A stretch of DNA of 64,000 nt, from NCBI RefSeq assembly GCF_044324785.1, contig NZ_CP172127.1; one strand, given 5' to 3'. Position 1 is the stretch's first letter, and every line of letters starts with the position of its first letter. The translations under genes were made by a program, and so were the position numbers. Shown piece after piece: positions 43,937 to 64,000 of this stretch. The notes beneath the pieces were generated by a model, which saw nothing but the letters and a program-made list of their open reading frames with translations, made no database searches and had not been told where the DNA came from. The DNA is from Escherichia coli (GTDB lineage: Bacteria; Pseudomonadota; Gammaproteobacteria; Enterobacterales; Enterobacteriaceae).

Positions 43937-44002
43937 GGGCGTGATTACCTGATTTAGGTTTCAAAATGATAACTTCGCAAGCAAGTAACATTCACAACGA
44001 AA

Positions 44003-44362
44003 TTATCCACGTTTCAGTTTAAGCGCCAATGATAGAGCATTCTGTGATAGTGGATCATGGGGAAAGATCACATCGGGCTGTAAATCACCCGCATACATAC
44101 CGGTAATTGCGGGAATTTTTTGCGGTCGGGCGAAGACGGTCAGTCCTTTCATAAACAAGGTGTCGACGATGCGTTGCTGATCGTCCAGGGCGATGGCGAC
44201 CACGACCCGCGGTTTAAAGCGCCCGCTGGAACGGCCCACGCCAACCCGCCCTTGCTGGCATAGTGTGTCGAAGGCACGGTTAAAACGAGAAATTTGCCAA
44301 CCGCCTAAGGCCAGTTGCGCACACCAGGCGATAACGGCGACGGTGATGAGTGCGGATACCAT
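44003..44362 (-). CDS. gutM: Glucitol operon activator GutM
   Basis: 119 aa, N-terminal hydrophobic segment; conserved position. Confidence 0.88.
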   Translation of the reverse strand: MVSALITVAVIAWCAQLALGGWQISRFNRAFDTLCQQGRVGVGRSSGRFKPRVVVAIALDDQQRIVDTLFMKGLTVFARPQKIPAITGMYAGDLQPDVIFPHDPLSQNALSLALKLKRG

Positions 44363-44394
44363 AACTTCTCCGTAATGTAGTGGCGGAAGTCTTG

Positions 44395-44424
44395 TAGGCC
44401 TGATAAGCGTAGCGCATCAGGCAT
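44395..44424. repeat. REP element, with adjacent hairpin (44437-44461) between srlD and gutM
   Basis: gtaggcctgataagcgtagcgcatcaggca REP-like palindrome, followed by gcggagatc-N7-gatctccgc. Confidence 0.65.
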
Positions 44425-44467
44425 TCTATTAGTCGCGCGGAGATCCTTAAAAGATCTCCGCTGTTGA

Positions 44468-45622
<1,155 letters not shown>

Positions 45623-45632
45623 GTTTCAGCCT

Positions 45633-47170
<1,538 letters not shown>

Positions 47171-47407
47171 TTATTGTTTTATTACCAAACGGCAACCTAA
47201 TCTAATCAGATTGAAAGATTTAAAAGTGTTATTTTGATCGCAAAATGAAAGATAAATATTTTAACTTGAAAGTTTCAATAAAAGGATAGCGAGGAGAATG
47301 AGTTGAGTTATGTAAAGTCCGTATCGGGCAGTGACTACCGCTTCCTTGTGCGGGGCGTGATGCTTTACCATACTTGCCCCTGGTTGAATCTGTTAAATGG
47401 ACCCCTC

Positions 47408-48493
47408 ATGTTCAAGCGTCGTTATGTAACATTGCTTCCCCTTTTTGTGTTGCTTGCCGCCTGTAGCAGCAAGCCAAAACCTACTGAGACTGAAACGACC
47501 ACCGGAACGCCGTCTGGCGGCTTCCTGCTTGAGCCGCAGCACAATGTGATGCAGATGGGCGGCGATTTCGCTAATAACCCGAATGCCCAGCAGTTCATCG
47601 ACAAAATGGTGAACAAACACGGTTTCGATCGTCAGCAGTTGCAGGAAATTCTCTCCCAGGCGAAACGTCTGGATTCGGTATTGCGGCTGATGGATAACCA
47701 GGCACCAACTACTTCGGTGAAACCGCCATCAGGTCCGAACGGCGCATGGCTGCGTTATCGCAAAAAATTTATTACGCCGGACAACGTGCAGAATGGTGTC
47801 GTTTTCTGGAATCAGTATGAAGATGCGCTGAATCGCGCGTGGCAGGTGTATGGCGTACCGCCGGAAATTATCGTCGGGATTATCGGCGTTGAAACGCGCT
47901 GGGGGCGTGTGATGGGGAAAACTCGCATCCTCGATGCGCTGGCAACGCTGTCATTTAACTACCCACGCCGCGCGGAGTATTTCTCTGGCGAGCTGGAAAC
48001 CTTCCTGCTGATGGCGCGCGACGAGCAGGACGATCCGCTCAATCTGAAAGGTTCCTTTGCCGGGGCGATGGGCTACGGACAGTTTATGCCGTCGTCTTAC
48101 AAACAATACGCGGTAGATTTCAGCGGCGACGGGCATATCAACCTGTGGGATCCGGTTGATGCCATTGGTAGTGTGGCGAACTATTTCAAAGCGCACGGCT
48201 GGGTGAAAGGTGATCAGGTTGCGGTGATGGCAAACGGTCAGGCTCCAGGCTTGCCAAATGGCTTCAAAACCAGGTACAGCATTTCGCAGCTTGCCGCGGC
48301 AGGTTTAACGCCACAGCAGCCGCTGGGCAACCATCAACAAGCTAGCCTGCTGCGTCTGGATGTTGGAACAGGTTACCAGTACTGGTACGGTCTGCCGAAC
48401 TTCTACACCATTACCCGTTATAACCACAGCACCCATTACGCAATGGCGGTCTGGCAGTTAGGACAAGCTGTGGCGCTGGCACGCGTGCAGTAA
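47408..48493 (+). CDS. mltB: Membrane-bound lytic murein transglycosylase B (lipoprotein)
   Basis: ORF 47303..48493; start set at MFKRRYVTLLPLFVLLAACSS (lipobox), 361 aa. Confidence 0.9.
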   Translation: MFKRRYVTLLPLFVLLAACSSKPKPTETETTTGTPSGGFLLEPQHNVMQMGGDFANNPNAQQFIDKMVNKHGFDRQQLQEILSQAKRLDSVLRLMDNQAPTTSVKPPSGPNGAWLRYRKKFITPDNVQNGVVFWNQYEDALNRAWQVYGVPPEIIVGIIGVETRWGRVMGKTRILDALATLSFNYPRRAEYFSGELETFLLMARDEQDDPLNLKGSFAGAMGYGQFMPSSYKQYAVDFSGDGHINLWDPVDAIGSVANYFKAHGWVKGDQVAVMANGQAPGLPNGFKTRYSISQLAAAGLTPQQPLGNHQQASLLRLDVGTGYQYWYGLPNFYTITRYNHSTHYAMAVWQLGQAVALARVQ

Positions 48494-48637
48494 CTATTTG
48501 CAAGAGGGGGGCGTGAGCTTCCCTCTGCCAAATCGGCTTTTTTCTGAATCCTCCTCGTAAAATTGCAACGCCAACACCATCTTCCTGACGAAAGTGCTAT
48601 CTTGTCCGGCATAAATTTTTGACTGACAGAGGTTGTG

Positions 48638-49135
48638 ATGACTGACAGTGAACTGATGCAGTTAAGCGAACAGGTTGGGCAGGCGCTGAAAGCCCGTGGC
48701 GCAACCGTAACAACTGCTGAGTCTTGTACCGGTGGTTGGGTAGCGAAAGTGATTACCGATATTGCCGGTAGCTCCGCCTGGTTTGAACGCGGATTTGTCA
48801 CCTACAGTAACGAAGCCAAAGCGCAAATGATCGGCGTACGTGAAGAGACGCTGGCGCAGCATGGCGCGGTGAGCGAGCCTGTCGTGGTGGAAATGGCGAT
48901 AGGCGCACTGAAAGCGGCTCGTGCTGATTATGCCGTGTCTATTAGTGGTATCGCCGGGCCGGATGGCGGCAGTGAAGAGAAGCCTGTTGGCACCGTCTGG
49001 TTTGCTTTTGCCACTGCCCGTGGCGAAGGCATTACCCGGCGGGAATGCTTCAGCGGTGACCGTAATGCGGTGCGTCGTCAGGCTACTGCGTATGCATTGC
49101 AGACCTTGTGGCAACAATTTCTACAAAACACTTGA
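48638..49135 (+). CDS. pncC: NMN amidohydrolase PncC (CinA-like)
   Basis: Start at ATG 48638 (MTDSELMQ...), 165 aa. Confidence 0.9.
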   Translation: MTDSELMQLSEQVGQALKARGATVTTAESCTGGWVAKVITDIAGSSAWFERGFVTYSNEAKAQMIGVREETLAQHGAVSEPVVVEMAIGALKAARADYAVSISGIAGPDGGSEEKPVGTVWFAFATARGEGITRRECFSGDRNAVRRQATAYALQTLWQQFLQNT

Positions 49136-50276
<1,141 letters not shown>

Positions 50277-50344
50277 TCGTCTTGTTTGATACACAAGGGT
50301 CGCATCTGCGGCCCTTTTGCTTTTTTAAGTTGTAAGGATATGCC

Positions 50345-50845
50345 ATGACAGAATCAACGTCCCGTCGCCCGGCATATGCTCGCCTGTTAGATCGTGCGGT
50401 ACGCATTCTGGCGGTGCGCGATCACAGTGAGCAAGAATTGCGACGTAAACTCGCGGCACCGATCATGGGCAAAAATGGCCCGGAAGAGATTGATGCCACG
50501 GCAGAAGATTACGAGCGCGTTATCGCCTGGTGCCATGAACATGGCTATCTCGATGACAGCCGATTTGTTGCGCGCTTTATCGCCAGCCGTAGCCGCAAAG
50601 GTTATGGACCTGCGCGTATTCGTCAGGAACTGAATCAGAAAGGTATTTCCCGCGAAGCGACAGAAAAAGCGATGCGTGAATGTGACATCGACTGGTGCGC
50701 ACTGGCGCGCGATCAGGCGACGCGAAAATATGGCGAACCTTTGCCAACTGTCTTTTCAGAAAAAGTTAAGATCCAGCGTTTTCTGCTCTATCGTGGCTAT
50801 CTGATGGAAGATATCCAGGATATTTGGCGAAATTTTGCCGACTGA
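50345..50845 (+). CDS. recX: RecA regulator RecX
   Basis: 166 aa, recognised sequence, downstream of recA. Confidence 0.92.
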
Positions 50846-50973
50846 ACGCATACGGTATTTTACTTCCCAGTCAAGAAAACTTATCTTATTCCCACTTTTT
50901 CAGTTACCAGCCCGGCGGTTAAAACACGCTGTAGCTGGTGGCGATATTTCGTTAGCTTGATTTCAGGATAATT

Positions 50974-53604
50974 ATGAGCAAGAGCACCGCTGAGATCCGT
51001 CAGGCGTTTCTCGACTTTTTCCATAGTAAGGGACATCAGGTAGTTGCCAGCAGCTCCCTGGTACCCCATAACGACCCAACTTTGTTGTTTACCAACGCCG
51101 GGATGAACCAGTTCAAGGATGTGTTCCTTGGGCTCGACAAGCGTAATTATTCCCGCGCTACCACTTCCCAACGCTGCGTGCGTGCGGGTGGTAAACACAA
51201 CGACCTGGAAAACGTCGGTTACACCGCGCGTCACCATACCTTCTTCGAAATGCTGGGCAACTTCAGCTTCGGCGACTATTTCAAACACGATGCCATTCAG
51301 TTTGCATGGGAACTGCTGACCAGTGAAAAATGGTTTGCCCTGCCGAAAGAGCGTCTGTGGGTTACCGTCTATGAAAGCGACGACGAAGCCTACGAAATCT
51401 GGGAAAAAGAAGTAGGGATCCCGCGCGAACGTATTATTCGCATCGGCGATAACAAAGGTGCGCCATACGCATCTGACAACTTCTGGCAGATGGGTGACAC
51501 TGGTCCGTGCGGCCCGTGCACCGAAATCTTCTACGATCACGGCGACCACATTTGGGGTGGCCCTCCGGGAAGTCCGGAAGAAGACGGCGATCGCTACATT
51601 GAGATCTGGAACATCGTCTTCATGCAGTTCAACCGCCAGGCAGATGGCACGATGGAACCGCTGCCGAAGCCGTCTGTAGATACCGGTATGGGTCTGGAGC
51701 GTATTGCTGCGGTGCTGCAACACGTTAACTCTAACTATGACATCGACCTGTTCCGCACGCTGATCCAGGCGGTAGCGAAAGTCACTGGCGCGACCGATCT
51801 GAGCAATAAATCGCTGCGCGTAATCGCTGACCACATTCGTTCTTGTGCGTTCCTGATCGCGGATGGCGTAATGCCGTCCAATGAAAACCGTGGTTATGTA
51901 CTGCGTCGTATCATTCGTCGCGCAGTGCGTCACGGCAATATGCTGGGCGCGAAAGAAACCTTCTTCTACAAACTGGTTGGTCCGCTGATCGACGTAATGG
52001 GCTCTGCGGGTGAAGACCTGAAACGCCAGCAGGCGCAGGTTGAGCAGGTGCTGAAGACTGAAGAAGAGCAGTTTGCCCGTACTCTGGAGCGCGGTCTGGC
52101 GCTGCTGGATGAAGAGCTGGCAAAACTTTCTGGTGATACGCTGGATGGCGAAACTGCTTTCCGTCTGTACGACACCTATGGCTTCCCGGTTGACCTGACG
52201 GCTGATGTTTGTCGTGAGCGCAACATCAAAGTTGACGAAGCTGGTTTCGAAGCAGCAATGGAAGAGCAGCGTCGTCGCGCGCGCGAAGCCAGCGGCTTTG
52301 GTGCCGATTACAACGCAATGATCCGTGTTGACAGCGCATCTGAATTTAAAGGCTATGACCATCTGGAACTGAACGGCAAAGTGACCGCGCTGTTTGTTGA
52401 TGGTAAAGCGGTTGATGCCATCAATGCAGGCCAGGAAGCTGTGGTCGTGCTGGATCAAACGCCATTCTATGCGGAATCCGGCGGTCAGGTTGGTGATAAA
52501 GGCGAACTGAAAGGCGCTAACTTCTCCTTTGCGGTGGAAGATACGCAGAAATACGGCCAGGCGATTGGTCACATCGGTAAACTTGCTGCGGGTTCTCTGA
52601 AAGTGGGCGACGCGGTGCAGGCTGATGTTGATGAGGCTCGTCGCGCCCGTATTCGTCTGAATCACTCCGCAACGCACCTGATGCACGCTGCGCTGCGCCA
52701 GGTTCTGGGTACTCATGTATCGCAGAAAGGTTCACTGGTTAACGACAAAATGCTGCGCTTCGACTTCTCACACAACGAAGCGATGAAACCAGAAGAGATT
52801 CGTGCGGTCGAAGACCTGGTGAACGCACAGATTCGCCGTAACTTGCCGATCGAAACCAACATCATGGATCTCGAAGCGGCGAAAGCGAAAGGTGCGATGG
52901 CGCTGTTCGGCGAGAAGTATGATGAACGTGTACGTGTGCTGAGCATGGGCGATTTCTCCACCGAGCTGTGTGGCGGTACTCACGCCAGCCGCACTGGTGA
53001 TATTGGTCTGTTCCGCATCATCTCTGAATCGGGTACTGCTGCAGGCGTTCGTCGTATCGAAGCGGTAACTGGAGAAGGCGCTATCGCCACCGTTCATGCA
53101 GACAGCGATCGCTTAAGCGAAGTCGCGCATCTGCTGAAAGGCGATAGCAATAATCTGGCTGATAAAGTGCGTTCAGTACTGGAACGTACGCGTCAGCTGG
53201 AAAAAGAGTTACAACAGCTTAAAGAACAAGCTGCCGCACAGGAGAGCGCAAATCTTTCCAGTAAGGCAATTGATGTTAATGGTGTTAAGCTGTTGGTTAG
53301 CGAGCTTAGCGGTGTTGAGCCGAAAATGTTGCGTACCATGGTTGACGATTTAAAAAATCAGCTGGGGTCGACAATTATCGTGCTGGCAACGGTAGCCGAA
53401 GGTAAGGTTTCTCTGATTGCAGGCGTATCTAAGGACGTCACAGATCGTGTGAAAGCAGGGGAACTGATTGGTATGGTCGCTCAGCAGGTGGGCGGCAAGG
53501 GTGGTGGACGTCCTGACATGGCGCAAGCCGGTGGTACGGATGCTGCGGCCTTACCTGCAGCGTTAGCCAGTGTGAAAGGCTGGGTCAGCGCGAAATTGCA
53601 ATAA
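50974..53604 (+). CDS. alaS: Alanine--tRNA ligase
   Basis: 876 aa; full-length AlaRS. Confidence 0.97.
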
Positions 53605-53838
53605 TATAAGCGTCAGGCAATGCCGTGGACTCGCTTCACGGCATTCGCATTAACGCTATCGACAACGATAAAGTCAGGTTGAAGTTGTGTATATCGGCTA
53701 AACTTAGGTTTAACAGAATGTAATGCCATGACTGCTTACATGTAATGTGTTTGTCATTGCTTACTTTTTGGCGTTATATGATGGATAATGCCGGGATACA
53801 GAGAGACCCGACTCTTTTAATCTTTCAAGGAGCAAAGA

Positions 53839-54024
53839 ATGCTGATTCTGACTCGTCGAGTTGGTGAGACCCTCATGATTGGGGATGAGGTCACCGTGAC
53901 AGTTTTAGGGGTAAAGGGCAACCAGGTACGTATTGGCGTAAATGCCCCGAAGGAAGTTTCTGTTCACCGTGAAGAGATCTACCAGCGTATCCAGGCTGAA
54001 AAATCCCAGCAGTCCAGTTACTAA
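53839..54024 (+). CDS. csrA: Carbon storage regulator CsrA
   Basis: 61 aa [48 protein letters not shown]. Confidence 0.97.
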
Positions 54025-54249
54025 TCTTTCCGCGTCTCATCTTTATCGGTGAGACGCACCCTCAAAATTTCTCCTTCACTCCATTGTCTTTTCGCTTTAC
54101 TCCCGTTCATTCAACTTAAGTCTCCATTTTTTTGCATTACTGCTATCTGTCAGACCTCCGTTTTTCTGTTGATAAAACACTCTTTTTGACGTTTTTACAG
54201 ACTAATTGAGCGTGAAGTGTGCAAACGATAAAAGTGTGGGAAAAATTGT

Positions 54250-54277
54250 TTGACTTATAAGTCTCAGAAAGTAATAT
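54250..54277 (+). promoter_or_regulatory. Sigma-70 promoter of serV-arg tRNA operon
   Basis: -35 TTGACT, 16-bp spacer, -10 TAATAT, then GC-rich discriminator gtgcgcc; AT-rich upstream region. Confidence 0.5.
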
Positions 54278-54339
54278 GTGCGCCACGCAGCGACGATGAG
54301 CGATAAACAAGTTCTTCGAAGCACTCGTAAGAGGCGTGT

Positions 54340-54432
54340 GGTGAGGTGGCCGAGAGGCTGAAGGCGCTCCCCTGCTAAGGGAGTATGCGGTCAAAAGCTG
54401 CATCCGGGGTTCGAATCCCCGCCTCACCGCCA
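54340..54432 (+). tRNA. serV: tRNA-Ser (anticodon GCT)
   Basis: 93-nt cloverleaf with long variable arm, anticodon loop ctGCTaa, CCA end. Confidence 0.93.
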
Positions 54433-54435
54433 TTT

Positions 54436-54512
54436 GCATCCGTAGCTCAGCTGGATAGAGTACTCGGCTACGAACCGAGCGGTCGGAGGTTCGAATCCTC
54501 CCGGATGCACCA
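54436..54512 (+). tRNA. tRNA-Arg (anticodon ACG)
   Basis: 77 nt gcatccgtagctcagctggatagagtactcggctACGaaccgagcggtcggaggttcgaatcctcccggatgcacca; 3 bp after serV. Confidence 0.93.
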
Positions 54513-54575
54513 TCTCTTACTTGATATGGCTTTAGTGGCGGTATCAATATCAGCAGTAAAATAAATTTTCCCGAT

Positions 54576-54652
54576 GCATCCGTAGCTCAGCTGGATAGAG
54601 TACTCGGCTACGAACCGAGCGGTCGGAGGTTCGAATCCTCCCGGATGCACCA
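54576..54652 (+). tRNA. tRNA-Arg (anticodon ACG), second identical copy
   Basis: Identical 77-nt sequence, 63-bp spacer after first copy. Confidence 0.93.
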
Positions 54653-54767
54653 TATTCTCCGTAACCTTCAGCAATGAAGGTATCGAAGAGATAGCGGTAT
54701 TAACCGCAGGCACCAGGGAGGATAACGTTGCGCCAGCAACGGCCCGAAGGGCGAACGTCAGTGAGTC

Positions 54768-54785
54768 ATCCTCCCGGATGCACCA
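54768..54785 (+). other. 18-nt remnant identical to the 3' end of tRNA-Arg (atcctcccggatgcacca)
   Basis: Read directly 115 bp after the second tRNA-Arg; no tRNA body upstream. Confidence 0.6.
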
Positions 54786-54932
54786 TCTTCTCCAAAAAAC
54801 TTCCTTCAAAAATATCTCATTTCTAAATAACTACTTTATCCATTTCCTGAATTTTCTTCTCCTTCGCCATCAGCGACAAAATCAAGCAATTACGCTAAAG
54901 TAGCGTCATATTTTTCGACTTGCGAGAAGACC

Positions 54933-55499
54933 ATGTACGAGCGTTATGCAGGTTTAATTTTTGATATGGATGGCACAATCCTGGATACGGAGCCTACGCA
55001 CCGTAAAGCGTGGCGCGAAGTATTAGGGCACTACGGTCTTCAGTACGATGTTCAGGCGATGATTGCGCTTAATGGCTCGCCCACCTGGCGTATTGCTCAG
55101 GCGATTATTGAGCTGAATCAGGCCGATCTCGACCCGCATGCGTTAGCGCGTGAAAAAACAGAAGCAGTAAGAAGTATGCTGCTGGATAGTGTCGAGCCGC
55201 TTCCTCTTGTTGAAGTGGTGAAAAGTTGGCATGGTCGTCGCCCAATGGCTGTAGGAACGGGGAGTGAAAGCGCCATCGCTGAGGCATTGCTGGCGCACCT
55301 GGGATTACGCCGTTATTTTGACGCCGTCGTCGCTGCCGATCACGTCAAACACCATAAACCCGCGCCAGACACATTTTTGTTGTGCGCGCAGCGTATGGGC
55401 GTGCAACCGACGCAGTGTGTGGTCTTTGAAGATGCCGATTTCGGTATTCAGGCGGCCCGTGCAGCAGGCATGGACGCTGTGGATGTTCGCTTGCTGTGA
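54933..55499 (+). CDS. yqaB: HAD-family sugar phosphatase YqaB
   Basis: 188 aa; HAD motif I FDMDGT. Confidence 0.9.
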   Translation: MYERYAGLIFDMDGTILDTEPTHRKAWREVLGHYGLQYDVQAMIALNGSPTWRIAQAIIELNQADLDPHALAREKTEAVRSMLLDSVEPLPLVEVVKSWHGRRPMAVGTGSESAIAEALLAHLGLRRYFDAVVAADHVKHHKPAPDTFLLCAQRMGVQPTQCVVFEDADFGIQAARAAGMDAVDVRLL

Positions 55500-55924
55500 G
55501 TGAAGCGTTATCGCTTTTCTCGTTGTTTGCCAGTAGTTTTCTCAGCGCTACACTATTACCCGGCAACTCCGAAGTCGTGCTGGTGGCAATGTTGCTTTCC
55601 GGGATCAGTCATCCCTGGGTTTTAGTTTTAACAGCAACAATGGGTAATAGCCTTGGAGGGTTAACTAACGTTATCCTTGGGCGTTTCTTTCCATTGCGTA
55701 AAACATCGCGCTGGCAAGAGAAAGCTACTGGCTGGCTGAAACGCTATGGTGCAGTCACGCTATTATTAAGCTGGATGCCCGTAGTTGGCGATTTACTGTG
55801 TCTGTTAGCGGGATGGATGCGCATCTCCTGGGGGCCGGTAATCTTTTTTTTGTGCCTTGGTAAAGCGTTACGCTATGTTGCAGTTGCAGCAGCGACCGTT
55901 CAGGGCATGATGTGGTGGCACTAA
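55496..55924 (+). CDS. yqaA: DedA/SNARE-associated family inner membrane protein YqaA
   Basis: 142 aa membrane protein; overlaps yqaB stop. Confidence 0.88.
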   Translation: MSEALSLFSLFASSFLSATLLPGNSEVVLVAMLLSGISHPWVLVLTATMGNSLGGLTNVILGRFFPLRKTSRWQEKATGWLKRYGAVTLLLSWMPVVGDLLCLLAGWMRISWGPVIFFLCLGKALRYVAVAAATVQGMMWWH

Positions 55925-55969
55925 TTGTAGGCCTGCACATATGGTCACCATTACAGTTATGCTAATTAA

Positions 55970-57553
<1,584 letters not shown>

Positions 57554-57561
57554 CAGAAAAG

Positions 57562-57634
57562 AAAAAGGCCACTCGTGAGTGGCCAAAATTTCATCTCTGA
57601 ATTCAGGGATGATGATAACAAATGCGCGTCTTTC
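57562..57634 (-). ncRNA. micA: MicA (SraD) small regulatory RNA
   Basis: Reverse complement gives GAAAGACGCGCATTTGTTATCATCATCCCTGAATTCAGAGATGAAATTTTGGCCACTCACGAGTGGCCTTTTT; between gshA and luxS on the opposite strand. Confidence 0.85.
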
Positions 57635-57702
57635 ATATACTCAGACTCGCCTGGGAAGAAAGAGTTCAGAAAATTTTTAAAAAAATTACCGGAGGTGGCT
57701 AA

Positions 57703-58218
57703 ATGCCGTTGTTAGATAGCTTCACAGTCGATCATACCCGGATGGAAGCGCCTGCAGTTCGGGTGGCGAAAACAATGAACACCCCGCATGGCGACGCAAT
57801 CACCGTGTTCGATCTGCGCTTCTGCGTGCCGAACAAAGAAGTGATGCCAGAAAGAGGGATCCATACCCTGGAGCACCTGTTTGCTGGTTTTATGCGTAAC
57901 CATCTTAACGGTAATGGTGTAGAGATTATCGATATCTCGCCAATGGGCTGCCGCACCGGTTTTTATATGAGTCTGATTGGTACGCCAGATGAGCAGCGTG
58001 TTGCTGATGCCTGGAAAGCGGCAATGGAAGACGTGCTGAAAGTGCAGGATCAGAATCAGATCCCGGAACTGAACGTCTACCAGTGTGGCACTTACCAGAT
58101 GCACTCGTTGCAGGAAGCGCAGGATATTGCGCGTAGCATTCTGGAACGTGACGTGCGCATCAACAGCAACGAAGAACTGGCGCTGCCGAAAGAGAAGTTG
58201 CAGGAACTGCACATCTAG
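57703..58218 (+). CDS. luxS: S-ribosylhomocysteine lyase (AI-2 synthase)
   Basis: 171 aa; HTLEHL metal-binding motif. Confidence 0.96.
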
Positions 58219-58250
58219 TCAGTAAACTATCTTCACAATTAATTGAAAAA

Positions 58251-58272
58251 AGCCAGTTCAAATGAACTGGCT
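58251..58272. terminator. Hairpin between convergent luxS and emrB
   Basis: agccagttca-aa-tgaactggct perfect inverted repeat flanked by A/T runs. Confidence 0.55.
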
Positions 58273-58281
58273 TAGTTGTAC

Positions 58282-59820
58282 TTAGTGCGCACCACCTCCG
58301 CCGCCACCTGCGCCAAATGGCGGTTTAGCAAACCACACCAGCCCCAGCAGGACGAGGAATATCCCGGCTGACATCCAGAAGATCTCATTGGCGGAAATAA
58401 TCAGCCCCTGATTGGTGATCTGCTGGGCAATCCAGCCTGATGCCTGCTGTTGCGTCATTCCCAGTCCTTCCAGTTGACTGTACATCGCTTGGGCATTCGG
58501 GTTGAACGGGTTTACCGACTCGGTTAACTGTGCGTGGTGCATCGACTCGCGGTTGGTCCACATGGTGGTGGTAATGGATGTGCCGATAGACCCCGCCAGC
58601 GTTCGCGTAAAGTTAGAGAGGCTCGATGCCGCCGCCAGTCGTTCCGGTGGCAAACCAGACAGCGTAATGGTGGTCAGCGGCATAAAGAAGCAGGCCACCG
58701 CAAAACCCTGGATAAACTGCGGCCAGGCCGACGCGCCAAAATCCATACCCGGTTCAAAGGTATAGGCACGCCAGTAGAAGCAGACGGCATACATAATAAA
58801 GCTGAAGGTTACCAGCCGCCGCATATCCAGTTTATGCGCGAAGCGGCCGATAATCGGCGACAGGATCACCGGAATAATTCCTACCGGCGCAGAGGCCAGA
58901 CCTGCCCACGTTGCCGTGTAACCGTAGACCTCCTGCAACAACTGCGGCAGCAGAACAATAGCGCCGAAGTAGAGCATATACGCGAGGCTGATACACAAAC
59001 AGCCGATGGTGAAGTTGCGCGACTTAAACAACGACAGATCGACTATCGGGTTATCGTCGGTCAGCTCCCAGACAATCAGGAAGCAGATAGCCACCACTGC
59101 CACCACGGTAAGGATGATAATTTCCTGTGATGAGAACCAGTCCAACTCTTTACCGCGGTCGAGCATAATCTGCAGGCTACCGATACCAATAACCAGCAGT
59201 GCCAGCCCCACGGCATCAATCCGCCGCCGTTCGGTGCGGGTTTCGCGTCCGCGCAGGGTTTGCAGTGTCATCAACACCACCGCCACGCCAATCGGCACGT
59301 TGATGAAGAATATCCAGCCCCAGTGGTAATTATCGCTGATATAACCGCCGAGGATCGGGCCGCAAATTGGCGCGACAATCACCGTCATCGACCACAACGC
59401 CAGCGCGATCGAGCGTTTGGCTGGCGGGTAGTTATTCAGCAATAGACTTTGCGAAAGCGGGATCAACGGTCCGGCGACAATCCCCTGAATCACGCGGAAG
59501 AAGATCAGCATATTCAGGCTGCTGGAGACACCACACGCCCACGACGCAATAGCAAAGGCGATGGTTGACCAGAGGAACAGTTTCACTTCCCCGACGCGCT
59601 TTGCCAGCCAGCCGGTAAGCGGGATCGAGATGGCATTCGCTACCCCGAAGGAAGTGATTACCCACGTTCCCTGGCTGAGCGATGAGCCCAGATTCCCGGC
59701 GATAGTGGGGATCGCCACGTTAGCAATGGTGGAGTCCAGCACCTGCATGAATGTCGCCAGTGACAGCGCAATCGTCATAATGACCAGTTGCGCGCCTTCC
59801 AGCGGTTTTTGCTGTTGCAT
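58282..59820 (-). CDS. emrB: Multidrug efflux MFS transporter EmrB
   Basis: ORF 58282..59829; start set at MQQQKPLEGAQL (512 aa); 14-TM MFS. Confidence 0.94.
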   Translation of the reverse strand: MQQQKPLEGAQLVIMTIALSLATFMQVLDSTIANVAIPTIAGNLGSSLSQGTWVITSFGVANAISIPLTGWLAKRVGEVKLFLWSTIAFAIASWACGVSSSLNMLIFFRVIQGIVAGPLIPLSQSLLLNNYPPAKRSIALALWSMTVIVAPICGPILGGYISDNYHWGWIFFINVPIGVAVVLMTLQTLRGRETRTERRRIDAVGLALLVIGIGSLQIMLDRGKELDWFSSQEIIILTVVAVVAICFLIVWELTDDNPIVDLSLFKSRNFTIGCLCISLAYMLYFGAIVLLPQLLQEVYGYTATWAGLASAPVGIIPVILSPIIGRFAHKLDMRRLVTFSFIMYAVCFYWRAYTFEPGMDFGASAWPQFIQGFAVACFFMPLTTITLSGLPPERLAAASSLSNFTRTLAGSIGTSITTTMWTNRESMHHAQLTESVNPFNPNAQAMYSQLEGLGMTQQQASGWIAQQITNQGLIISANEIFWMSAGIFLVLLGLVWFAKPPFGAGGGGGGAH

Positions 59821-59836
59821 CACACGCACCTCTGGA

Positions 59837-61009
59837 TTAGCCAGCGTTAGCTTTTACGATATCGTCGATCAGTTTATTGACAGGTGCCAGGCTGATTTCA
59901 CGCGCGGTGCTTACCGCTACCGGTGTGGAACGTACTTTATTTGCCAGTACCTGACCGTCACGGTTAGTGGTATTGACGCTCACCAGCGTGGATAAACCGA
60001 TACGCAGCGGGTATTGCTCCAGCTGTTTTTGGTCCAGTTCGATACGAACAGGCAGACGCTGAACGACTTTGATCCAGTTACCAGTCGCATTTTGCGCCGG
60101 AAGCAGTGAGAACGCGCTACCTGTGCCCATATCCAGACCAACCACTTTTCCGGTGTATTTCACATCATCGCCGTAAATATCGGTGGTGATGGTGACCGGC
60201 TGACCGATACGCATATTGGCAATCTGCGTCTCTTTAAAGTTGGCATCCACCCACATATTGGTGGCTGGAACGACCGCCATCAGCGGCGTCGTTGGGCTAA
60301 TTTGCGCCCCAGGCTGTACCGCGCGGCGGGAGACATAACCGGTCATCGGACTGACAATACGGGTACGCTCCAGCGCCAGCCAGGTGTTACGTACTTCGGT
60401 GGCAGCCTGTTGCACGGCAGGCTGATCTTCCAGTTTAGTCCCCAGAATCATCGCCTGATTGGCATTGTATTGTTGAATAGCGACGTCCAGTTGTGCCTGG
60501 GCACTGGTAACGGCGTCGCGGGCGTGTTGCAGCTCTTCGCGACCAATCAGGTTGGCATTGCCCAGCGGCACACGGCGGTTGTAGTCGCTTTGTGCTTTCG
60601 CGAGGGCGATTTTTTGCACCTCAATATTCGCCTGCAACTGTTTGCTGTTAATCATCAGCTGGTGGGTTTGGCGAACGCTGGAAGCCAGTGCAGTTTTGGC
60701 TTTTTCAAACGCCTGGCGAGCATCTGTCGGGTCGAGAGTGACCAGAACATCGCCTTCTTTTACAAAATCGGTGTTATCGGCCCAGACTTTCGTCACGCTG
60801 CCAGACACCTGAGACATAATTTGAATCTGATTCCCTGCCACGTATGCGTCATCGGTTTCTTCGAAATGACGCAGTACTAAAAACCAATAAATCCCTATCG
60901 CTACGGCAATAATTATAAAGAGCAAGGTGAGAAGGAGGAGCAGACGCTTACGTTTGCCGCTCTTCTTTACCGGTTGCTGCGGGGTTTGAGTCTCCGCATT
61001 TGCGCTCAT
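59837..61009 (-). CDS. emrA: Multidrug efflux membrane fusion protein EmrA
   Basis: ORF 59837..61021; start set at MSANAETQTP (390 aa); HlyD-family periplasmic adaptor. Confidence 0.94.
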   Translation of the reverse strand: MSANAETQTPQQPVKKSGKRKRLLLLLTLLFIIIAVAIGIYWFLVLRHFEETDDAYVAGNQIQIMSQVSGSVTKVWADNTDFVKEGDVLVTLDPTDARQAFEKAKTALASSVRQTHQLMINSKQLQANIEVQKIALAKAQSDYNRRVPLGNANLIGREELQHARDAVTSAQAQLDVAIQQYNANQAMILGTKLEDQPAVQQAATEVRNTWLALERTRIVSPMTGYVSRRAVQPGAQISPTTPLMAVVPATNMWVDANFKETQIANMRIGQPVTITTDIYGDDVKYTGKVVGLDMGTGSAFSLLPAQNATGNWIKVVQRLPVRIELDQKQLEQYPLRIGLSTLVSVNTTNRDGQVLANKVRSTPVAVSTAREISLAPVNKLIDDIVKANAG

Positions 61010-61135
61010 ATTGTTCTCCACGATCTTCTTAACTCATCGGCTGAGCCGACCTGCTTGCCAAAAAGGCCAGCATGTTGCGATGCTGGCCAGTCATTTTTTC
61101 TTTTATAAATCTGGATTTTTGAGCGAGATGACGCG

Positions 61136-61666
61136 TTAGCTCATCGCTTCGAGAACCACACCGTCTTGTTCCATCTGGTCGAGACGGGAGAGCAATTTGC
61201 GGGTGATTTGCTCGAGCTGATCTTTTTCTGTTGTGCTGAGCGCGGACCAGAGTTGATGCAGGCAGTTATGCTGCGGTGGTAAAACCTCGCGCAAAAACTC
61301 GTGACCTTTTTCCGTTAATTGCAGATGCAGGCAGCGGCGATCGTTATCGCTTTCACGACGTTCAATCCAACCGCGTTTTTCCAGTTCATCGGCAATACGC
61401 GTCGCGTTGGTACGGGATGATCCAAGAGCACAACTCAATTCAGAAGGCTGAATACTGTGGTTTTCCTGAGACTCCAGCGTAATCAACGCCATAAACAACG
61501 TCTCGTTAATCCCCTGAGCCTTCAGCATTTTATTGCGGTTCTCCAGCAGCTTGCTTTGCATGTGCATGCAAAGACGGGTCAGAAGGATCTCCTGATAAGG
61601 AAAATCTTCGTGGCGGCTGGCGCGAAATTTTAGCATTTGTTCAATGGGCGTAAACGAACTATCCAT
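61136..61666 (-). CDS. emrR: MarR-family repressor of emrAB (EmrR/MprA)
   Basis: 176 aa, recognised sequence; upstream of emrAB. Confidence 0.94.
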
Positions 61667-61756
61667 TTGGGTATGACCTCATTAATTTCAGCCGATATAG
61701 TAACGACAGTGACAAATAAAGTAAATGTATTGTTTTAGAAAAATGATTCTTGTGGG

Positions 61757-62092
61757 TTATATAATCGCCATCACTTTCCAGGCGAGCCCGTAGGCCAGCG
61801 CACTAAGCAGTGTTGGGATGATAATGCTGCGTGTTTTATAGAAACTGGCACCCAGTACCGCGAAGCCGACCAGCGTGGGCACGAAACGGCGTGTATCGTG
61901 CATCACTTCTGGTGCGGTAGAGACAACCAGCAGAGCGCATATCGAGGCGATGCCAATGGTGTCGAGCAATATGCCTATCGCGCCACGTTTGGTTGGGCGG
62001 GCATTACCCACACGCAGGCGCAGCGGCAAATAGCGGAAGCAATAATTCGCCGCGCCAACCAGTAACCCAAGCAGCAGAACCTCATAGCTCAT
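61757..62092 (-). CDS. ygaH: L-valine exporter small subunit YgaH (AzlD-like)
   Basis: 111 aa membrane protein; overlaps ygaZ 3' end. Confidence 0.88.
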
Positions 62093-62819
62093 CGGGCGCT
62101 CCTTGCCAGAATGCCTGGATTAACGCAGTGAGGCAGCCACAGACAATGCCTGCCAGAATGGCGACGGGAATAGAAAATAGCGTTACGCCTGCAAGGGCAC
62201 CAACTAACGCTGCGGTAACGCAAAGAGATTGTTTGCGCTGGAAAGAGGCGAGCAGGAAACTCATAAAGAGTGCCGGAAGCATAAAACCTAATGCTGCTTC
62301 AACGGCGGGATATCCTTGCAGCAAGCCGCTGCCGGAGAATGCCCCTATTACCGTACCAAATACCCACGATGACCATGAACTGAAGGCAATGCCGATCATC
62401 CAGTTCTCGCTCCAGCGGCGATTATTGCGTACCAGTTTTGCGGTTGCGGCGGCAAAAACCTCATCCGTCAGGCCAAATGCCCACAGGGCGGTTTTCGATT
62501 TTTGCAGACGCTGAATAATACGGCTACGCAGTGACGGGCCATACAAAACATGGCGAACATCCATTGCCATGACGGTCAGTGCAGCAACCCACAAACTACT
62601 CCCGGCTGCCAGCATCGCGGTAATGACGAACTGGCTCGCGCCTGCATAAATGATGCAGGAGAAAAAAACGCTTTCGAGAGGAGAGAATCCCAGACGGGTC
62701 GCATTCAGACCGAACGCAAAGGCCACCGGAATATAACTAATAACAATCGGTAAACTGTCTTTGCATCCTTCCATGAAGGTCGCCGAACCAGGAGCAGGCT
62801 GTGGAGTAGGGCTTTCCAT
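62082..62819 (-). CDS. ygaZ: L-valine exporter subunit YgaZ (AzlC-like)
   Basis: 245 aa polytopic membrane protein. Confidence 0.88.
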
Positions 62820-62942
62820 AGAGTGTACGCTTAACGATTGTTAATATTATAAATAGACTGAATGAATATCTTAACCTTATCAGACTGATGGGCTTCTTAA
62901 CACCCTTATAAGTGTAAAGCCACGAAAACGGTTGCTGATTGC

Positions 62943-64000
62943 TTAATTTGCAGCTTCCTGACGATGAAAACCTCGCCACCAGACCAGTAAGTTAACCAGG
63001 GCAATCGTCGCGCCAGCCAGACAAACGCCAGCCCAACCGCCATGTTGCCAGGCTGAGGCTGAAATTAGCGAACCGGCGGCACCGCCAATAAAGTAGCTGG
63101 TCATGTAACCTGCGGTCAGGCGATTACGCGCATCAGGGTGTATTCGATAAATTACCGTCTGGTTAGTGATATGCACGCCCTGCACGGTGAGATCCAGCAC
63201 CAGGATGCCGATAATCAAGGCCAGTACGGAAGTGTGGCCAAACCAGATCGCCAGCCATGAAAGTAATAGCAGCAGCAGACCGAAAGTAGTGGTGTGGTGC
63301 GATTTACCCTTATCGGCAAAACCGCCCGCCGGACGAGCACCCAACGCTCCGGCAGCTCCCGCAAGTCCAAACAGACCAATTACACCATCGCTGTAGTTAA
63401 AAGGTGGAGCGGCAAGCAAAAAGGCCATTGAGGTCCAGAGAATGCTGAAGTTGGCAAAGGTCAGGCAGCCCAGCAACGCGCGGGTGCGCAGAATTTTATC
63501 GCTGATAAACATGCTGAAAACGGAACCAAGCAACTGTGGGTAGTTGAGGTGGGTTTCTGATTTCATTTGTGGCAGACCACGCCATAATGCCAGCGCCATC
63601 AGTGCCATTAACACCGAGGCAACCCAAAAGACGGTGCGCCAGCCGCCGAGGTTTGCCAGCAACCCGGCAACGGTTCGTGCCAGCAAGATCCCCAACAGCA
63701 GCCCGCTCATAATGGTGCCGACCACTTTGCCGCGTTTGTCCGGTGAAGCCAGCGTCGCTGCCAGCGGAACCAGAATTTGTGCCACGACCGAGAATAAACC
63801 GGTTAATGCCGTACCGAGGATCATCATCGCCAGCGACTGACTGCTGGCGGTAATCAACATACCGCCTGCCGCCAGTAAGGTCATCGAGACAATCAGGCGG
63901 CGGCGTTCAAACATATCACCGAGGGGAACAAGAAACAGCAGACCTGCGGCATAGCCCAACTGCGCGGCGGTAACAATAAAGCCCGCCGAACTGGCGGAAA
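62943..64000 (-). CDS. ygaY: MFS transporter (YgaY-like), 5' end beyond window
   Basis: Minus-strand frame open from 62943 to the window edge with no stop; hydrophobic MFS-like translation. Confidence 0.75.
   Translation of the reverse strand, partial: SASSAGFIVTAAQLGYAAGLLFLVPLGDMFERRRLIVSMTLLAAGGMLITASSQSLAMMILGTALTGLFSVVAQILVPLAATLASPDKRGKVVGTIMSGLLLGILLARTVAGLLANLGGWRTVFWVASVLMALMALALWRGLPQMKSETHLNYPQLLGSVFSMFISDKILRTRALLGCLTFANFSILWTSMAFLLAAPPFNYSDGVIGLFGLAGAAGALGARPAGGFADKGKSHHTTTFGLLLLLLSWLAIWFGHTSVLALIIGILVLDLTVQGVHITNQTVIYRIHPDARNRLTAGYMTSYFIGGAAGSLISASAWQHGGWAGVCLAGATIALVNLLVWWRGFHRQEAAN

Follow-up and report, generated by a model that had tools for sequence, protein, structure and literature searches.

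RtT RNAs were first described in the tyrT operon, and tyrT/tyrV is also the classic case of unequal crossing-over in tandem tRNA genes. The RtT RNA of tyrT-tyrV (rttR; Rfam family RF00391) lies directly after a tRNA gene and on the same strand, has a common core with hairpins, and ends in a terminal copy of the 3′ end of the neighbouring tRNA, including the CCA. In E. coli K-12, the RefSeq/PGAP annotation places four RtT sRNAs in the tyrT operon and none in the arg operon, serV-argV-argY-argZ-argQ. Release of rtT as a discrete processed RNA has been reported for tyrT and for homologues in Actinobacillus, and the function of RtT is still called unknown in PMC7542023 and in bioRxiv 10.1101/2024.07.17.603846.

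The E. coli DNA analysed here (the window, which denotes the whole stretch of 64,000 nt) carries a short array of tRNA-Arg(ACG) genes downstream of serV, followed by a spacer and by an 18-nt remnant that copies the tRNA 3′ end. We regard it as very probable that this is the serV-tRNA-Arg operon in a rare two-copy form, that the spacer and the remnant make up one RtT-family element which would be processed together with the tRNAs, and that two modes of recombination act on the array. The 133-nt module is a conserved but unannotated RtT-type element that ordinarily ends in the remnant. The array, which usually has four copies, is here in a rare form with two that arose by repeat recombination, and as such it is a matter of ordinary biology.

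The serV–tRNA-Arg locus and its K-12 counterpart

The features of the locus, in order along the window, are as follows.

54250–54277, plus strand: promoter-like site, TTGACT-16 nt-TAATAT, upstream of serV (consensus scan, 9/12 hexamer matches)
54340–54432, plus strand: tRNA-Ser(GCT), serV (ARAGORN; Rfam tRNA, 56.8 bits; tRNA-Ser in the annotation of syntenic E. coli loci)
54436–54512, plus strand: tRNA-Arg(ACG) copy 1, denoted T (ARAGORN; Rfam tRNA, 67.1 bits)
54513–54575, plus strand: 63-nt inter-tRNA spacer, denoted B (97–98% identity to the K-12 argY-argZ spacer and to EcN spacers)
54576–54652, plus strand: tRNA-Arg(ACG) copy 2, also T, identical to copy 1 (ARAGORN; Rfam tRNA, 67.1 bits)
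54653–54785, plus strand: RtT-family element of 133 nt, made up of the 115-nt spacer (A) and the 18-nt remnant (r)
54653–54767, plus strand: 115-nt spacer A
54710–54723, plus strand: predicted 5′ strand of the closing helix, GCACCAGGGAGGAT, pairing with the remnant (inverted repeat; MFE and centroid structures)
54721–54771, plus strand: conserved RtT core with hairpins (nhmmer, tail-trimmed Tyr-type HMM)
54768–54785, plus strand: 18-nt remnant r, the tail of the RtT-like element (exact match to tRNA-Arg, T loop to CCA)
54786–54793, plus strand: TCTTCTCC, resembling the module start TATTCTCC (direct repeat, 25/26 identical)
54892–54915, plus strand: weak hairpin with a T run, terminator-like, in the interval from the array to yqaB (consensus scan)
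54933–55499, plus strand: yqaB (fructose-1-phosphate/6-phosphogluconate phosphatase), the conserved downstream flank (ORF; syntenic annotation)

The layout given by the initial annotation, namely two identical 77-nt tRNA-Arg genes 63 bp apart, then 115 bp and 18 nt that repeat the tRNA 3′ end exactly, was borne out by ARAGORN, Rfam and a repeat search. The 100% identity of the two tRNA-Arg copies extends to 79 nt (54435–54513 versus 54575–54653), and the repeat unit, a 77-nt tRNA-Arg plus a 63-nt spacer B, measures 140 bp. The 64-kb window contains three exact copies of the 18-mer ATCCTCCCGGATGCACCA, at the 3′ ends of both tRNA-Arg genes and at 54768–54785; the chance expectation is 0 in 100 shuffles. 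If one mismatch is allowed, the repeat grows to 26 nt (ATCCTCCCGGATGCACCAT[A/C]TTCTCC), and thus the sequence just 3′ of the remnant looks like the beginning of the 115-nt spacer. Going by this resemblance, the TCTTCTCC that follows the remnant is possibly the trace of a further tandem unit.

According to syntenic annotation, the locus is flanked as in E. coli, by csrA upstream and yqaB downstream. The start of yqaB lies 147 nt from the last CCA, a distance that was constant across all architectures examined. The site at 54250–54277 is a candidate operon promoter by its match to the consensus. In the interval from the array to yqaB, the consensus scan found no terminator stronger than the one at 54892–54915, and the count of terminator-like sites of this kind was not above that in shuffles. 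The hairpin at 54892–54915 is situated 18 nt 5′ of the yqaB start codon and could be either the terminator of the tRNA operon or a yqaB leader element. A coding role like that of tpr in tyrT was rejected: the module is overlapped only by ORFs of 20–41 aa or by spurious ORFs running through the tRNA genes. When 20 kb of the window (44000–64000) was compared with complete E. coli genomes, identities were 98.3–98.8% among the best matches listed, and the summary count of this comparison contained one record with at least 99% identity for its best place. The window is thus E. coli-like without being close to any of the listed genomes, and it may come from a sparsely sampled lineage or from a Shigella, a group outside the collection compared.

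The statement in the initial annotation that K-12 has four tandem tRNA-Arg copies proved right when the K-12 locus was compared. Written with T for tRNA-Arg, B for a spacer of ~63 nt, A for one of ~115 nt and r for the 18-mer, the K-12 array reads T-A-r-B-T-B-T-A-r-B-T-A-r, with four tRNA-Arg genes and three A-r modules, which follow argV, argZ and, as the terminal module, argQ. The terminal module is 99% identical to that of the window, and the 18-mer is identical. The two operons also have in common the csrA/yqaB flanks, the tRNA sequence and the 147 nt to yqaB. They differ in that the window has two tRNA-Arg genes and one RtT-like module, as opposed to four and three in K-12, and in that it belongs to the EcN-type (T-B)n-T-A-r series, unlike the interleaved layout of K-12.

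The module as a member of the RtT family

The module begins one base after the CCA of tRNA-Arg copy 2, on the same strand and within the tRNA operon, and its 3′ end repeats the last ~18–19 nt of the adjacent tRNA including the CCA (the exact 18-mer at 54768–54785), which is how RtT elements end. Rfam RF00391 gave a full-length match at 54660–54785 with 21.6 bits; the module searched alone reached 28.8 bits (E = 4e-4), and the K-12 argV copy 34.7 bits. All of these arg-module scores are under the RF00391 gathering cut-off of 45 bits; the model consensus bears a Tyr-type tail and penalizes other tails. When an HMM built from 30 tail-trimmed RtT elements of the Tyr type was run with nhmmer against the 64-kb window, the sole significant match was 54721–54771 (E = 8.6e-6), and nothing else in the 64 kb fell below E = 1. 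An alignment of the four K-12 RtT sRNAs, the three K-12 arg modules and the window module displayed homology along the whole element, with invariant blocks such as GCAACGRCCCGAAGGGYGA common to the window module and the K-12 tyrT RtT sRNAs, and only the last ~14 nt diverged, each matching the element's own tRNA. Further sub-threshold Rfam matches (Plastid-ycf2, HPnc0260, mir-9128 and others) were discarded as antisense tRNA look-alikes or noise.

As with RtT in the K-12 tyrT operon, where there are four copies, the arg-type element is present several times per operon (three times in K-12 argVYZQ). The window element is shorter, at ~133 nt versus 175–178 nt for tyrT RtT, it does not have the TCGAGCG..AGCGAGA hairpin and the GGTTCGA T-loop half of the latter, and its tail matches tRNA-Arg where that of tyrT RtT matches tRNA-Tyr. 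The pairing partner of the tail is ~110 nt upstream in Tyr-type RtT and ~45 nt upstream in the window element, and the helix is therefore analogous, rather than strictly homologous, to that of the Tyr type. In contrast to the tyrT RtT sRNAs, which are annotated, none of the sampled arg-module matches overlapped an annotated feature, and the scores remain below the Rfam cut-off. Of 5,426 complete E. coli genomes, 5,356 (98.7%) carry the module body, with a median of three per genome and regardless of tRNA-Arg copy number; among the module-body matches listed, 0 of 40 had an annotated feature underneath, a consequence of an Rfam model fitted to the tyrosine form. A search of the literature for arg-operon RtT-like modules or for variation of the array returned no report.

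The 133-nt module has a minimum free energy of −56.1 kcal/mol (z = −5.9 versus shuffles). In the predicted fold, remnant positions 54768–54781 pair with GCACCAGGGAGGAT (duplex energy −19.8 kcal/mol) as the 3′ side of a closing helix of 13 bp, and 54782–54785 are left as an unpaired ACCA; modelled in this way, the closing helix with its free ACCA is reminiscent of the acceptor and T stems of a tRNA stacked on each other. The helix encloses hairpins formed by CGTTGC/GCAACG at 54726–54741 and by GCCC/GGGC at 54742–54752, and a third hairpin is degenerate in the window copy. Among 16 Arg-type elements from several genera, the closing helix has 95.7% of cells paired, with two compensatory pairs, the first two hairpins are 99% and 98% paired, and overall 96.4% of cells are paired compared with at most 52% in slid controls. 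Compensatory changes were seen at three pairs, two of which are those within the closing helix. Arg-type sequences are so alike that covariation among them is modest. Hairpin 3 retains a stem in 56 of 66 distinct variants taken from all host types, by way of 32 different stem sequences.

In the element, a hairpin-rich conserved core is joined to a tail whose 18 nt copy the 3′ end of the neighbouring tRNA from the T loop to the CCA, and this tail would pair back to 54710–54723 to yield the 13-bp helix and free ACCA, a shape like an acceptor/T-arm. By analogy with rtT, the element would be co-transcribed with the tRNAs and presumably cut out as a discrete RNA by RNase P, RNase E and 3′ exonucleases.

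Length variants of the array and rival explanations

Counted over 5,425 complete E. coli genomes, tRNA-Arg(ACG) occurs 21,502 times, on average 3.96 times per genome (median 4, range 1–9), and 53 of the 60 genomes in a spread sample (about 88%) have four copies. A single copy was found in at least seven genomes, WB61 and at least six others. Alleles with one, two, three, four and five tRNA-Arg genes differ by whole units, with unchanged flanks, as the following layouts illustrate.

Window, AVS0970 and TUM13770: T-B-T-A-r (n = 1)
EcN: (T-B)3-T-A-r (n = 3, four tRNA-Arg)
FDAARGOS_1255: (T-B)4-T-A-r (n = 4, five tRNA-Arg)
WB61: T-A-r (n = 0 by layout)
ETEC H10407: T-B-T-A-r-B-T, terminal module absent

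In ETEC H10407 (locus L126, 1801–2025) the last tRNA-Arg is joined directly to the sequence normally found 3′ of the remnant, that is, the terminal module is missing by an exact 133-bp deletion between the 18/19-nt direct repeats formed by the tRNA 3′ end and the tail. The whole-unit allele series and the H10407 deletion thus point to two recombination modes at the array. One would be unequal crossing-over of the 140-bp units, generating the (T-B)n-T-A-r series in which the window has n = 1, and the other would be gain and loss of the 133-bp RtT-like module between the 18/19-nt direct repeats. The former is like the copy-number change of tyrT/tyrV, with identical tandem genes, whole-unit alleles and conserved flanks, whereas the arg array differs from it in also gaining and losing the 133-bp module, independently, by way of the shorter repeat shared by tRNA 3′ end and tail. 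Since the module is conserved in four-copy arrays and these two modes act on the array, the remnant is a long-standing, conserved component of the operon and did not arise through the loss of copies. The proposal of the initial annotation that the copy number had changed by recombination between tandem repeats stands in so far as the array is shorter than that of K-12 and whole-unit alleles with one to five copies exist, but the remnant itself is no evidence for such a change.

A few arrays depart from these layouts. In E. coli O157:H7 MB41-1 (L125, 1718–1819), the spacer between the second and third tRNA-Arg is 102 nt long, is 59% identical to B and matches both B (63 nt) and A-r (133 nt) poorly; it may be a hybrid or a partly deleted module. 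In the complete assemblies of IH5 (L128) and B-766 (L131), synteny breaks at the array: IH5 has a 74-nt tRNA-Arg followed by a truncated pdeC and soxS/soxR, and in B-766 serV-tRNA-Arg-yqaB is present a second time in inverted orientation. Either the repeats have truly rearranged in these strains or the assemblies are wrong. E. coli XL10-Gold (H46, NZ_CP081008.1, 4656236–4656535) has six tRNA-Arg(ACG) places, one of them lying under 'hypothetical protein' annotations distant from the usual locus, and this extra place may be a copy of the array on integrated F′ DNA.

The remnant invites readings as a scar. It could have been left from a tRNA-Arg that was partly deleted as the array shrank from four copies to two, and an exact copy of a tRNA 3′ end without a tRNA body would be in line with this. 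However, the same 18-mer together with the 115-nt sequence upstream of it is found at the argQ end of four-copy K-12, in EcN and in a five-copy strain, the sequence upstream of the 18-mer is homologous to RtT, and the body occurs in 98.7% of genomes whatever their copy number, and we find a recent deletion scar hardly credible. It could also be that an integrase element inserted in the T loop of the tRNA-Arg and left the 3′-end repeat behind, the 115 nt being its residue, as the initial annotation had in mind when it called the duplicate typical of integrase-mediated insertion. The T loop is one sublocation used by tRNA-targeting integrases, and the repeats that integrases leave likewise consist of an intact tRNA gene and, at a distance, a short exact 3′-end copy starting in the T loop, as the repeat does here; moreover, H10407, in which exactly the 133-bp module is missing, looks like an 'empty site' allele. 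Deletion between the 18/19-nt direct repeats would, however, account just as well for the H10407 allele. A mere 115 nt separates the repeats, no integrase or cargo is found in or beside them (a point on which the initial annotation was correct, yqaB following directly, 147 nt after the remnant), and, unlike in integrase-left repeats, what lies between them is a conserved, structured RNA element that accompanies many types of tRNA. Its interior carries compensatory changes of the RNA type, and the core with matching tails is found after at least five other kinds of tRNA and apparently after 5S rRNA, which would require many integrase specificities. A search of a phage database returned four records, three of them Salmonella chromosomal contigs; the fourth (H181), a short record of 7.4 kb that has no annotation and goes under the name Salmonella phage S.Kent 1-2-1, gave a 40%, partial match. 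An attachment-site scar is thus very unlikely, and the claim of an integrase scar gives way to one conserved RtT-family element comprising both spacer and remnant. Neither copy loss nor an integrase needs to be invoked for the remnant, because four-copy K-12 carries the same 115-nt plus 18-nt module.

The two-copy state itself might be an artefact of assembly, in which a true array of three to five copies was collapsed by merging of 140-bp units; the RtT-like module would still be real in that case. The units are short, their 77-nt cores are identical and the spacers are 88–98% alike, short-read assemblers can merge such units, about 88% of the 60-genome sample is four-copy, and odd rearrangements are seen at the array in some 'complete' assemblies, as in IH5 and B-766. 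On the other hand, exactly the two-copy layout, co-linear over the whole locus, is found in about 29 complete genomes (about 0.5%) from several sources and in at least two haplotype groups, and two-copy genomes (H167, H170, H172) are among the closest relatives listed in the 20-kb comparison. Alleles with one, three and five copies exist as well, and an engineered one-copy K-12 is viable (PMC13170351). We consider collapse unlikely on this evidence, and it is not needed as an explanation because about 29 complete genomes share the layout. The initial annotation had named, as speaking against its own account, the presence of the same remnant and spacer beside four intact copies in K-12 with the missing copies lost to assembly collapse; the first half of this is what K-12 contains (spacer 99% and 18-mer 100% identical), and as for the second half, collapse is unlikely, as said above.

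RtT-type elements at other genes, their possible origin and their meaning

A scan for the core GCAACGRCCCGAAGGGYGA in one genome per species gave at least 120 loci, mostly from Enterobacterales and constituting a non-random subset. Among the loci listed, the core follows genes for tRNA-Tyr, Arg(ACG), Lys, Pro or Glu. For the 116 listed elements with the upstream tRNA inside the fetched DNA, the tail is an exact 16-nt copy of the 3′ end of that tRNA in 90, and matches it with at most one mismatch in 100. Of the tails compared, the element's own gives the strongest pairing with the body in the Tyr type (−18.5, the others reaching −15.0 or weaker) and in the Arg type (−17.5, again against −15.0 or weaker). 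In Hafnia and Yersinia, where the T stem of tRNA-Arg differs, the pairing partner of the tail changes along with it. As a rule for all types, host-specific pairing of body and tail was rejected: it is clear in the Tyr and Arg types but not in the other three (Lys, Pro, Glu), and no more than 44 of 79 elements paired most strongly with their own tail.

Twelve elements with the RtT core (L008, L042, L044, L045, L048, L054, L055, L076, L077, L084, L085, L109) have no tRNA tail and end in AACTGCCAGGCAT, which we take to be the 3′ end of E. coli 5S rRNA. One of these, in E. coli SCPM-O-B-8794 (L048, 7790–7860, minus strand), has a rho-independent terminator directly 3′ of it, and those of other species are followed by the rrn-distal tRNA-Thr(GGT) or tRNA-Asp. 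The rule of the host-matched tail thus seems to extend to 5S rRNA. At the Pro types (L017, L018, L021, L033, L074, L112) and the Glu type L107, a strong terminator-like hairpin and T run come directly after the tRNA, and the RtT-like part would sit 3′ of this apparent terminator, unlike in the Tyr, Arg and Lys types. The three contigs from the phage collection (H178–H180; AGRM01000002.1, AFYI01000003.1, AGRM01000003.1), labelled Salmonella enterica and 0.5–0.7 Mb in size, are clearly chromosomal; one of them contains a full-length Arg-type module that is 83% identical to the window's, and another contains an annotated 'RtT RNA'.

As to where such elements come from, a tentative idea, which we hold to be less likely than not, is that they are former copies of tRNA (and 5S rRNA) genes whose T loop has been interrupted by a conserved, structured insert of ~45–65 nt, the tail being the true 3′ end of the lost gene. 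In Yersinia nurmii (L078, 119–281, minus strand) an Arg-type element aligns to positions 23–59 of the host tRNA-Arg with 35 of 37 positions identical, and the tRNA-like part ends at the T-loop TTCGA, directly before the RtT core; this element looks like a tRNA pseudogene with a T-loop insert. In the Tyr, Lys and Pro types a host-matched ..GGTTCGA is kept just before the core. The Y. nurmii alignment and the host-matched GGTTCGA together suggest copies of stable-RNA genes with a T-loop insert. The 115-nt body of the window was tried as a decayed full-length tRNA-Arg by global alignment to tRNA positions 1–59, and its score of 36 was not significant: shuffles scored 29.4 ± 4.1, and 147 of 2,000 did at least as well (p about 0.07). 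The same test gave p = 0.27, 0.79 and 0.12 for the K-12 copies and p > 0.6 for the serV and tyrT controls, and this reading is therefore not put forward for E. coli. If the idea is true, the 18-mer of the window would be a real remnant of tRNA-Arg, albeit an ancient and conserved one, and the insert would be, or would have been, a loop-specific mobile or recombining sequence that turned redundant copies of stable-RNA genes into processed non-tRNA RNAs across the Enterobacterales.

The present locus matters mostly for annotation, in that a short exact repeat of a tRNA 3′ end beside an array of tRNA genes may be taken for the scar of a deletion or an integration. Here the repeat forms the tail of an RtT-family element, and about 99% of E. 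coli genomes have the body of that element. The locus adds an unannotated member to a known RNA family, and the well-known tRNA array in which it sits is of a rare but ordinary length. tRNA-Arg(ACG) is the only tRNA reading CGU/CGC/CGA and is the main substrate of TadA. The engineered one-copy K-12 has 16-fold less tRNA-Arg(ACG) (PMC13170351), so that low-copy alleles may have effects on translation and RNA editing; the two-copy array is one such allele, natural but rare, being carried by about 0.5% of complete genomes. For the RtT family, known since 1991, the host-matched tail, which holds for at least five tRNA specificities and apparently for 5S rRNA, provides a concrete handle.
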